Below are positions 5,902 through 8,851 of a stretch of 64,000 bases of DNA, one piece after another; position 1 is the first letter of the stretch; the number at the start of each line of letters is the position of its first letter. The notes beneath the pieces are model-generated. The model searched no databases and was not told the origin of the DNA. It was given only the letters and a program-made list of their open reading frames with translations. This stretch comes from an uncultured Acidobacteriota bacterium. Its GTDB lineage: Bacteria > Acidobacteriota > Vicinamibacteria > Fen-336. The DNA is taken from positions 41,282 to 105,281 of the forward strand of contig CAVUFF010000005.1 of the NCBI GenBank assembly GCA_963740655.1, read 5' to 3'. Position numbers and translations under genes: made by a program.

Positions 5902-7179
<1,278 letters not shown>

Positions 7180-7207: not shown

Positions 7208-8176
7208 CTACGCGCGGCGCGCGAAGTCCTTGGCGTGGTAGGTGAGGATCACGTCCGCGCCCGCGCGGCGGATCGAGGTCAGGATCTCGCGCAGCATGCG
7301 CTCCTCGTCGATCCAGCCGCGCGCGGCCGCCGCCTTCACCATCGCGTACTCGCCGGAGACGTTGTAGGCGGCGACCGGGCGGTCGCAGCTCTCCTTCACA
7401 GCGCGGATCACGTCGAGATAGGGCAGCGCCGGCTTCACCATCACGATGTCGGCGCCCTCCTCGACGTCGAGGCGCACCTCGCGCAGCGCCTCGCGCACGT
7501 TCGCCGGGTCCATCTGGTAGCCGCGCCGGTCGCCGAACTGGGGCGCGGAGTCCGCGGCCTCGCGGAACGGGCCGTAGAAGGCGGACGCGTACTTCGCCGC
7601 GTACGACAGGATCGGCAGCGCCGCATAGCCGGCGGCGTCGAGCGCCCCGCGGATCGCGCCGACGCGCCCGTCCATCATGTCCGAGGGCGCCACGACGTGC
7701 GCGCCGGCCTTCGCGTGCGACACCGCCATGCGCGCCAGCAGCGCGAGCGTCGGGTCGTTCTGCACCTCGCCGTCCGCGACGACGCCGCAGTGGCCGTGCG
7801 ACGTGTACTCGCACAGGCACACGTCCGTGACGACGAGCAGCTCTCGGCAGGCGCCGCGGATCGCGCGGACCGCCCGCTGCACGACGCCGTCGTCGGCGTA
7901 GCCTTCGGATCCGGTCGCGTCCTTGGCCGCGGGCAGGCCGAACAGGATCACGCCCCCGATCCCGAGCGCCTCGACGGCCTCGGCCTCGCGCGCGACCTGG
8001 TCGACCGAGAGGTGGTAGCAGCCGGGCAGCGAGGCGATCTCCTTGCGCACACCCTCGCCGGGCGCCACGAACAGCGGGTAGATCAGGTTCACGGGCGAGA
8101 CGGACGTCTCGCGCACCATCGCGCGCAGCCGCTCGCTGCTGCGGAGCCGCCGCGGCCGTTCGTCCGGGAAACTCAT
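7208..8176 (-). CDS. hemB: Porphobilinogen synthase (ALA dehydratase)
   Basis: [56 protein letters not shown]. Confidence 0.97.
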
Positions 8177-8225
8177 GAGGAAGCCATTCTAGGCCACGGA
8201 GACGAGCAGGGCACGGAAAGGGGAA

Positions 8226-8277
8226 ACGGACAAGGACGGCGGACAAGCACGACGGACAAGCACGACGGACAAGGAAC
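8226..8277. repeat. Four tandem 13-bp direct repeats (core CGGACAAG)
   Basis: ACGGACAAGGACG / GCGGACAAGCACG / ACGGACAAGCACG / ACGGACAAGGAAC; core at 8227, 8240, 8253, 8266. Confidence 0.9.
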
Positions 8278-8283
8278 CCTTCA

Positions 8284-8481
8284 GGGGGGTATGGGGGGAC
8301 GAAGTCCCCCCATCTCAAAGAGGGAAGCAGCAGGCCTGGCGTTCCGGTCCTCTTCGAGAGGGGTCATTGAGGAGCACGCGTGGGCTTCGACTCTCCAATG
8401 ATCGCTCGTGAAGGGGGTCGAATCGCGAGGCTGGTGACTTCGTTCTTTGAACTGGGGGGATTCCATCCCCCCAGACCCCCC
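8284..8481. repeat. 198-bp imperfect palindrome: two inverted ~91-bp units with G6/C6 hairpins (REP/REPIN/MITE-like)
   Basis: 8284-8374 aligns without gaps to the reverse complement of 8391-8481 (66/91 identical by hand count). Each unit has a perfect 10-bp stem with a GNA triloop. Confidence 0.85.
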
Positions 8482-8505
8482 TTGGGTGCGCGTTGCGCCC
8501 GGGCC

Positions 8506-8679
8506 TCAGTCCTCGTCGTCGCCGAAGAAGAAGAGGTGCGCGCAGCGCTGGCTGCAGAAGGTGCGACCGTACTCGCGCTTGCCGCAGTCGTGGCAGACCC
8601 ACTTGAAGCAGATCGGGCACTTCTGCAGCGTGACTTCCTCGTCGCTCTTCTGGCAAGTGACGCAGGTCGTAGGAGTCAA
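8506..8679 (-). CDS. Small Cys-rich zinc-finger-like protein (~57 aa)
   Basis: CxxC-x11-CxxC-x4-CxxC-x9-CxxxC and acidic tail FFFGDDED. TTG 8679 lies 8 nt after a TATACT box; the track's start at 8703 overlaps that box. Confidence 0.75.
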   Translation of the reverse strand: MTPTTCVTCQKSDEEVTLQKCPICFKWVCHDCGKREYGRTFCSQRCAHLFFFGDDED

Positions 8680-8774
8680 TCGGGCGCAGTATATAGCAGC
8701 CAAAGAGGGCGCTTGGTTTCGTAGTATGCTGCCAAGTCGCGGAGACGGGCCCGTTTCTGCGAGAGTCCGCCCGT

Positions 8775-8851
8775 GGCGGTGTAGCTCAGTTGGTTAGAGC
8801 ACGCGGCTCATATCCGCGGCGTCCGGGGTTCGAATCCCTGCACCGCCACCA
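8775..8851 (+). tRNA. tRNA with CAT anticodon, most likely elongator tRNA-Met
   Basis: Full cloverleaf: acceptor GGCGGTG/CACCGCC, anticodon arm CGCGG-CTCATAT-CCGCG, GGTTCGAATCC T-arm, encoded ACCA end. G1-C72 is paired, so it is not the initiator. Confidence 0.95.

Follow-up and report, generated by a model that had tools for sequence, protein, structure and literature searches.

A palindrome of 198 bases upstream of hemB in a Vicinamibacteria genome is formed by two back-to-back copies of an undescribed non-coding repeat

The DNA analysed here, referred to as the window, is a stretch of 64,000 nucleotides from the genome of an uncultured soil bacterium of the Vicinamibacteria (Acidobacteriota), and the locus of interest is the spacer in front of hemB. 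This gene, encoding delta-aminolevulinic acid dehydratase, lies on the minus strand at 7208-8176 (Pfam ALAD, E 8e-150) and is accompanied on the same strand by a gene for a class-III aminotransferase, probably hemL, at 5902-7179. Directly upstream of hemB is found ORF65 (8506-8703, minus strand), which encodes a cysteine-rich protein of 65 amino acids, ends in a TGA stop codon and is conserved in the genus, with 77-93% nucleotide identity in relatives. Further on lie a tRNA-Met gene (8775-8851), tilS and ftsH, and the gene order around hemB is kept within the genus. A long palindrome occupies the spacer between ORF65 and hemB, so placed that hemB is downstream of it on the minus strand. Between the palindrome and the hemB start there are also four copies of a 13-nt tandem repeat (ACGGACAAGCACG-like, repeat family D1; 8213-8273, plus strand), which is missing from the orthologous sites in two congeners (G001 and G015). 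A scan against Rfam 15 with permissive E-values gave one match above threshold, the tRNA-Met at 8775-8848, which is outside the element; over the element itself nothing reaches the gathering score (11-21 bits vs. cut-offs of 34-111).

A repeat search of the window returned inverted-repeat arms of 92 nt at 8283-8374 and 8391-8482, which are 73% complementary, match without gaps at 67 of 92 positions and are separated by 16 nt. The left arm carries a perfect 10-bp stem, ATGGGGGGAC/GTCCCCCCAT, at 8291-8300 and 8304-8313, closed by a GAA loop, and the right arm a second one, CTGGGGGGAT/ATCCCCCCAG, at 8452-8461 and 8465-8474, with a GGA loop as read on the minus strand. Exactly two compensatory swaps distinguish the stems, A:T vs. 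C:G at the base and C:G vs. T:A at the top. This hairpin pattern occurs twice in the window, with 0 occurrences expected from 100 shuffles, and the 216-nt region folds with a z of about -8, as DNA or as RNA. An earlier note on this DNA had described two inverted units of ~91 bp, matching at 66 of 91 positions around a 16-bp centre, with perfect 10-bp stems, GNA triloops and two compensatory swaps between the stems, and this description is borne out.

The palindrome of 198 bases is made of two back-to-back copies of an undescribed non-coding repeat of ~100 bases, the basic repeat unit being a single arm. The left unit, L (8284-8374, plus strand), is a 91-nt core with its head at the 5' end; it matches positions 1-91 of the nhmmer model of the repeat (E 8e-18; contig coordinates C5:49565-49655) and scores 93.6 bits with the covariance model (R1), and orthologues of it are found in G015, G001 and metagenome contigs. 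The right unit, R (8391-8481, minus strand), is inverted and placed tail-to-tail with L, and matches the same model positions (E 4e-17; C5:49762-49672; 91.1 bits with R1). At the junction of 16 bp (8375-8390), according to the flank conservation profile, the weak 3' extensions of L and R (consensus CCACGAGCC) meet and overlap; this centre of the palindrome contains CACGCGTG at 8375-8382.

The repeat forms a family of ~60 copies in this genome. The assembly, which is 86% complete, has 11 contigs totalling 4.99 Mb and a G+C content of 71%. Searched in its entirety by BLAST with the 216-nt region, it gave 63 matches, an iterated nhmmer profile 66, of which 59 at E<1e-6 and the majority spanning the entire model, and a covariance model 62. 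In the flank profiles a weak conservation extends ~10 nt upstream (consensus AGGCAACCCA) and ~9 nt downstream of the core, as is the case for unit L, so that the unit measures ~100-110 nt and has fuzzy ends. The 5' flank consensus of the units is (A)GGCAACCCA. The suggestion that the palindrome belongs to a repeat family of the REP/REPIN/MITE type, to be checked by BLASTN of the unit against the genome, was right in kind: the copies are many and intergenic, part of them stand in inverted pairs, and compensatory changes in the hairpin are found family-wide. The second G6 run on the 5' side of the hairpin and the ~60 copies in the genome are missing from the earlier note.

From a structural perspective, each unit consists of a head and a tail. 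The head has the layout A-G6-N3-(G6 hairpin)-C6, that is a G-run, a 3-nt turn and a G/C hairpin of 10-12 bp, whose loop is mostly a triloop and usually GNA (GAA, GGA; also GAC, TAC and TTC). In L the head spans 8283-8313 on the plus strand (inverted repeat I4) and comprises A8283, the G-run at 8284-8289, the turn at 8290-8292 and the hairpin with its GAA loop. In R it spans 8452-8482 on the minus strand (inverted repeat I5) and reads A (8482), G6 (8481-8476), TCT, G6, AT-GGA-AT, C6, AG. The palindromic part therefore takes up only 23-27 nt of the ~100-nt unit. Across the family the hairpin is 92% paired and shows 40 double-sided changes, a result matched by none of 500 shuffles; the maxima of mutual information fall on the stem pairs, and compensatory stem differences are also seen between orthologous copies. 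Within the stem, G:U pairs are no more favoured than C:A. The covarying stems at hemB, pointed out before, are explained by the two arms belonging to two different subtypes of the family.

The tail, of ~60 nt, is less conserved than the head, begins with NNCAAGGAAGGAGG and finishes with CATTGGAGAG. Neither RNAalifold nor mutual information, applied to the whole unit on both strands, gave any structure in the tail, the head hairpin alone being supported; an apparent pairing between GGAAGGAGG and CCTCTT was dropped, as it shows no covariation. In several units the last ~45 nt of the tail are duplicated in tandem, or shorter sub-repeats follow behind, which indicates a mosaic build of the unit. 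Head and tail are unrelated in alignment, and single units are consequently devoid of the terminal inverted repeats that define a MITE, an inverted look being confined to the juxtaposed doublets. The sequence directly behind the heads is NNCAAGGAAGG, not a run of T, and a search for intrinsic terminators between 8000 and 8900 gave 0 terminator-like sites and no U tract.

The G-run in front of the hairpin is a one-sided feature. A genome scan for hairpins with an arm of at least five G gave 120 cases, in 96 of which a further run of at least five G lies within 6 nt on the 5' side of the G arm, while the opposite arrangement occurs in 0; most of the remaining G-arm hairpins carry a degraded G-run. 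The strict pattern G6-N3-G6-N5-11-C6 occurs 37 times in the genome, and 0 times when reversed. The heads are built from G5-9, a turn and again G5-9, with a hairpin loop mostly of 3-6 nt; the turn measures 3 nt in 87% of them, and the lengths of the two G-runs are equal in 68% and within 1 in 99%. Moreover, interruptions of the two runs stand in mirror register: arms with CGAGGGGG go with GGGG(T/A)GC, arms with CTAGGGGG with GGGGGTC, and arms of a second family, B, with TCTGAGGGGGG go with GGGGAG. An A in the arm has A or T as its mirror base in 53 of 64 cases in this genome (G000) and in 35 of 37 in relatives, and a G in the arm has A or T in about 5%; similarly, 19 of 19 heads in G000 with an A behind the arm G-run also have an A preceding the first run, and in relatives the preceding base is A (36) or T (5) in 41 of 43, this mirror covariation being drawn from copies related by descent and amounting to ~4-5 independent events or lineages, including family B and a distant acidobacterial family. 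In the head of L the mirror partners run from G8289-G8293 through G8284-G8298, with A8283-A8299 in addition.

The interruptions in the heads match purine-motif triplets (G*G:C, A*A:T and T*A:T). The alternative that the first G-run forms Watson-Crick pairs with the C arm is ruled out, since the interruptions lie in mirror and not in direct register, which makes such pairing impossible. In the nomenclature of Holder et al. (2015; PMC4666352), class I designates motifs with the reverse-Hoogsteen block on the 5' side, followed by the purine and then the pyrimidine block, and the E. coli TM_ECO (BoxC/PIT) belongs to class II. Such motifs are defined there by stems of 6 or more and by loops measuring 1-6 nt. 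The head shows the blocks in the class-I order (third-strand purine, purine and pyrimidine, 5'-3'). Judged by its sequence, it conforms to the class-I type of potential intrastrand triplex motif and mirrors the BoxC/PIT/TM_ECO of E. coli, and the mirror arrangement of the two G-runs appears to fit such a motif better than a G-quadruplex. The same head is found in at least three further families of the genome, namely family B, which has an additional 5' hairpin with a GGCGCA loop, family C, which starts with TAGC-G6 and has the tail AAAGCCGGTCCAGAG, and a G7-TGAG variant; a two-hairpin repeat of the distant acidobacterial family bears it as well. The TRIP1 repeats of E. coli, despite their name, are unrelated to triplex motifs.

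Tail-to-tail doublets with the heads outward, as at hemB, occur nine times, with spacers of 16, 17, 27, 28, 36, 42, 84, 126 and 133 nt. They are located mainly between convergent genes, with one head per gene. The mean identity between doublet partners (68%) equals the mean of all pairs (68%); at hemB, L is 81% identical to its nearest paralogue (C1_647232) and R 85% identical to its own (C11_790009), vs. 73% between L and R. Partners are thus no more alike than random copies, which means that different subtypes have been juxtaposed and that the doublets are neither REPINs nor fold-backs or local inverted duplications. At several loci with a doublet in this genome, only a single unit was found in relatives by profile search. 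Among the nhmmer matches in the genome there are no outward-facing heads 0.7-3 kb apart, the arrangement of a possible autonomous element.

Gene calls for the placement of the units came from our own crude GC3-based caller, which covered ~80% of the genome. With these calls, 59 of 66 units are intergenic. Among the strictly defined heads (n=78), 31 lie between convergent genes, 34 between genes of the same direction and 2 between divergent genes, the reference spacers of at least 60 nt numbering 247, 1051 and 498, respectively; the units are over-represented in convergent spacers and almost missing from divergent ones. In 54 of 67 cases the nearer gene boundary lies on the side of the G-run, the median distance being 20 nt there and 152 nt at the opposite end. 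For at least 31 of 58 units the head is preceded, at a distance of 0-49 nt (mode 8 nt), by the end of a co-oriented ORF whose GC3 is of the coding type; typically the head stands 7-30 nt behind the stop codon. The stops preceding heads are TAG in 20 cases, TAA in 8 and TGA in 3, so that TAG and TAA make up 28 of 31, and genome-wide usage is 62% TGA, 34% TAG and 4% TAA (p = 2e-9 for the TAG/TAA bias near heads). A TAG stop is present already at two or three orthologous empty sites, and the stop is consequently not supplied by the element. This suggests that genes ending in TAG or TAA are preferred as sites, or that insertions there are better tolerated. Between genes of the same direction, as called by the same crude procedure, 17 heads are co-oriented and 17 antisense, and several of the latter may be due to overlooked ORFs. 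No significant bias for the replication strand was seen: the GC skew is weak, and the putative leading strand carries 18 of 31 units.

The distribution of the family is narrow. Within the genus, the covariance model detected it in 13 of 17 genomes (0-78 copies each), and almost not at all in other genera of the same family; other families of the order had none. Of 185,579 species genomes, only three, all of them Vicinamibacteria MAGs, contain the exact pattern of head plus tail. For 31 loci from relatives with mappable flanks, the orthologous site in this genome is occupied in 19 cases and empty in 12. Orthologous copies are 91% identical in the head vs. 71% in the tail, and paralogues 81% vs. 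61%; the best paralogues reach about 85-87% in G000 and G010, and there are no near-identical copies. From the orthology, the identities of head and tail, the compensatory changes and the divergence of the paralogues, we infer that the family is old and mostly vertically inherited, with occasional gain and loss, and that the head is under constraint.

The hemB locus itself illustrates this pattern of occupied and empty sites. The spacer between ORF65 and hemB is empty in G011 (4 nt), in G002 (29 nt) and in three metagenome contigs (about -4, 0 and 10 nt). Units of the family are present where it measures 200-460 nt, in G000, G001, G009, G006, G014 and G015 and in three contigs, and other head-type elements in two contigs where it measures 114-122 nt. 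The comparison with orthologous empty sites that had been proposed thus gave such sites in two congeners and three metagenomic relatives. In this genome the head of R begins 23-24 nt past the TGA stop of ORF65, and the head of L, which follows no gene, is directed toward hemB. The doublet is an insert splitting the formerly coupled pair ORF65-hemB rather than a regulator of hemB. Furthermore, the sequence TAGAAT (8186-8191, minus strand) is found 9 nt before the ATG of hemB, and CATTCTA(G/A/T), which gives TAGAAT when read on the coding strand, recurs 9-15 nt before the hemB start in several metagenome contigs and in 7 genomes of the genus whose spacer is expanded, and is missing where ORF65 and hemB abut. 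TAGAAT might serve as the -10 box of a nearly leaderless promoter of hemB; a scan of the hemB region for consensus promoters gave no match.

The palindrome is probably a doublet in which two copies of a dispersed, DNA-level repeat specific to the genus, acquired independently of each other, lie tail to tail; the repeat is similar to REP/BIME and most closely to BoxC/PIT/TM_ECO, and has settled behind gene ends. The repeat would have spread in the ancestor of the genus, with no recognisable transposase, and would have settled intergenically, preferentially a few bases behind TAG and TAA stops. Once inserted, the head hairpin may have been kept by selection as a structural element at the 3' ends of genes, where, perhaps adopting a triplex fold in single-stranded DNA, it could block 3' exonucleases, RNA polymerase or the replication fork. 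At hemB the insert would have parted the ancestrally coupled ORF65 and hemB, hemB being then read from its own promoter. The idea that hemB has here a conserved cis-regulatory RNA of its own, present once and acting perhaps as an attenuator or in the manner of a riboswitch, can draw on the position upstream of the gene and on a region that folds far better than its shuffles; it is refuted by the ~60 copies next to unrelated genes and by congeners whose hemB is entirely without the element, and no Rfam match over the element is above threshold. An assembly artefact of the fold-back kind, named beforehand as what could undo the observation, is ruled out by arms that are only 73% alike and by units at the same locus in independent assemblies of related species, and we give next to no credence to either of these readings.

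The placement of the heads could also be the mark of an element of RNA selected by the host, in which modular 3'-UTR or terminator cassettes act in the mRNA behind genes ending in TAG or TAA and owe their spread and retention to this function. At least 31 of 58 heads do stand 0-30 nt behind a co-oriented stop, with a strong bias towards TAG and TAA; convergent spacers are rich in heads and divergent ones almost free of them; compensatory changes accompany the conservation of the head; and the doublets lie mostly between convergent genes, with one head per gene. The same account has to face the negative terminator scan and the missing U tract, the equal numbers of co-oriented and antisense heads (17 and 17) between genes of the same direction, a unit L that follows no gene, a stem in which G:U is not favoured over C:A, and a copy number going from 0 to 78 inside one genus; moreover, a purine-motif triplex is impossible in RNA (PMC4666352), so that the conserved G-run would be left unexplained. 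On balance we regard it as unlikely. Mobilisation as a REP or REPIN by a RAYT, an HUH transposase of the Y1 type, had been put forward on account of the hairpins, and the repeats are indeed intergenic, hairpin-bearing and sometimes in inverted pairs; GTAG REPs likewise abut TAG stops (PMC3733652), and mini-hairpins of the GCGAAGC type favour single-stranded DNA. A single transposase gene could be missing from an assembly that is 86% complete. The Y1_Tnp domain (PF01797) gave 0 matches in this genome and was detected in control genomes, and across the genus it has no link with copy number: G010, with 78 copies, and G005 and G003 have none, and G012, with 0 copies, has five. Weak matches in G001, G015, G002 and G014 have no heads within 1.5 kb, and a RAYT or TnpA gene flanked by the repeats, looked for in the genome and the genus, was not found. 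In addition, there is no conserved terminal GTAG or CGTC tag, the base before the TAG being G in only 8 of 20 cases and the TAG itself standing at a variable 0-30 nt upstream, and the arms of doublets are no more alike than random copies. This reading is largely refuted, and we hold it to be very improbable. An insertion sequence of the cut-and-paste type, with a TA- or TAG-type target, from which the doublet or a lone unit would derive by deletion, is improbable as well. Presence and absence differ between species, the units adjoin TAG and TAA, that is TA-containing sites, rare at 71% G+C, and a few units have direct repeats matching at 8 of 9 positions in their flanks. Single units without terminal inverted repeats, doublets with variable spacers (16-133 nt) and unrelated partners, stop-to-head distances from 0 to 30 nt and the lack of an outward-facing head pair around a transposase-sized insert all speak against it, and the candidate duplications lie at inconsistent offsets with a weak overall signal (similarity of the flanks of the same unit vs. 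shuffled partners, z = 2.4 in G000 and 0.9 with relatives). Comparison of empty and filled orthologous sites involves relatives ~85% identical in their genes, too diverged for exact borders of the insertion or for a target-site duplication to be read off.

Dispersed hairpin repeats are known mainly from Proteobacteria, and mini-hairpins of the GCGAAGC type, which the head hairpin contains, are known to be very stable. To our knowledge, the triplex-type repeats among them (BoxC/PIT/TM_ECO) have no assigned function. The closest counterpart of the DNA-level repeat proposed here is BoxC/PIT/TM_ECO of E. coli and other Proteobacteria (Hoyne et al., 2000; Holder et al., 2015; PMC4666352). Both have three blocks on one strand, two of them G-rich and one C-rich, a loop of 3 nt between the purine blocks and a hairpin loop of 3-6 nt; both are intergenic, with tens of copies and a sharp variation of copy number between close relatives, and both include some inverted doublets that join two different subtypes, and are surrounded by spacers of unusual variability. 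TM_ECO is found exclusively between genes and without strand bias; its inverted doublets, five in number, always combine two subtypes, and it forms a triplex in vitro and has neither promoter nor terminator activity in E. coli (PMC4666352). It differs from the repeat described here in its block order (class II, whereas here the third-strand block is on the 5' side, as in class I), in its blocks, GGGNGAGGG instead of plain G6 runs, and in having no defined address, while the present repeat is found just behind TAG and TAA stops. Moreover, the motif heads here a longer unit with a tail of ~60 nt, the host is an acidobacterium, and the triplex is a prediction from the sequence. The Vicinamibacteria family would thus be a second, independent and much more regular example of a triplex-type repeat, in a poorly studied soil phylum, and its one-sided architecture (96:0) together with the mirror covariation points to a triplex fold rather than to a plain hairpin.

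A bolder version of this proposal is that the head is kept by selection as a genuine intrastrand DNA triplex, a "paperclip" of the class-I purine motif (A-G6, 3-nt turn, G6/C6 hairpin) whose architecture rather than sequence would be conserved in at least four families of this genome and in the distant acidobacterial family, and which would be recognised in single-stranded DNA by a non-RAYT machinery placing the head behind TAG and TAA stops. As a whole, we consider this distinctly unlikely. If true, it would be the first triplex-forming repeat with a defined genomic address, probably functional at gene ends, and the head might hold up the replication fork or RNA polymerase, or offer a protein a landing pad.

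Other repeats share part of these features. REP/BIME and the REPINs with their RAYT, in Enterobacteria and Pseudomonas (for GTAG-tagged REPs see Di Nocera et al., 2013; PMC3733652), are likewise G/C-rich extragenic hairpins behind genes, present as singles and inverted pairs, in mosaic with other modules and often adjoining TAG stops. The family described here differs from them in having no GTAG/CGTC tag and no associated RAYT, in the unrelated subtypes of its pair partners, in its unit of ~100 nt with a palindrome of only 23-27 nt and in its extra, obligatory G-run. For annotators, the family explains many of the long "palindromes" and expanded spacers in Vicinamibacteria genomes. The BOX elements of Streptococcus pneumoniae (boxA-boxB(n)-boxC) are modular non-coding repeats too, with an internal or terminal module repeated in tandem a variable number of times; the two have no relation in sequence, and the terminal modules of BOX pair mutually, whereas here the structure is confined to the head.

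The head of the approximately 100-nt interspersed units, formed by a G-run, a 3-nt turn and a G/C hairpin, also occurs in two further repeat families of the same genome, both located outside the window. Family B, with about 23 copies (for example C1:102086-102160, C1:629870-629945 and C3:372700-372770, as contig and position), is a two-hairpin repeat with the sequence CGAGCGGAGCGGGATTCACTCCCGC-GGAGCGAGC-G6-TCT-G6TGC-GGCGCA-GCAC6AGA; covariation is found in its first hairpin too, and its C-arm side often adjoins an opposite-strand stop codon. Family C, with about 18 copies (for example C9:458890-458990 and C11:198245-198340), reads TAG-C-G6-CA-CGGGGGG(Y)G-loop-CCCCCCG-AAAGCCGGTCCAGAG.GTCCGTTAGC; its G-run begins 1-5 nt past the TAG stop, and tandem repeats of the GTTCGTTGTCC type come after its elements. 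The same G-run, turn and hairpin head is present in an unrelated repeat, GGAGCGGCGnCTTTCnnGCGCCGAnccA-G7-(C)TA-G6AC-GGCA-GTC6-TGTACAC, in two genomes from a distant family of the phylum (G127 and G187), where the A of the arm has an A in the mirror position.

Long poly-G/poly-C fold-backs were observed at or near contig ends in several Acidobacteriota MAGs (e.g., G144:C114:16-61, G061:C1:44-78 and G145:C410:11-50, as genome, contig and position); these have the look of artefacts of sequencing or assembly, and they raise pattern counts artificially. Among the G-arm hairpins listed for the genome under study, the only one noticed that resembles a canonical intrinsic terminator, T tract included, is AAGGGGGGCCTTCGGGCCCCCCTT, followed by TTTTCTTG, on the minus strand of contig C11. 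This genome appears to contain few such classical terminators.

In the flanks listed, those of C2:126798-126899 included, several units are followed by a tandem copy of roughly the final 45 nt of the tail (GCCGTTCnnnCCCCTTCGAGAGCGGTCATTGGAGAG). After other units come shorter sub-repeats of the tail end, of 18-24 nt. Short A/C-rich tandem repeats, CGACGAACAA and ACGAGCGAC (T/G-rich on the opposite strand), adjoin many units and family C elements elsewhere in the genome. At hemB, four copies of a comparable 13-nt tandem repeat, like ACGGACAAGCACG (window 8213-8273), separate the gene from the head of the left unit of the doublet. Such short tandem repeats may mark the sites where the elements preferentially land, or they may arise as a side effect when spacers expand.

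The spacer upstream of hemB is bounded on its far side by ORF65 (window 8506-8703, minus strand), a cysteine-rich ORF of 65 aa (CVTC..CPIC..CHDC..C..C) with an acidic C-terminus, FFFGDDED, and no Pfam match. It is kept immediately upstream of hemB across the whole genus, abutting or overlapping the hemB start in some relatives, and may encode a small zinc-binding protein that serves tetrapyrrole synthesis as a partner or regulator. The hemB start lacks a Shine-Dalgarno sequence, with CTTCCTC in its place, and a TAGAAT (window 8186-8191, minus strand) lies 9 nt before the ATG, which together suggest that, where a species has the expanded spacer, its hemB mRNA is nearly leaderless.
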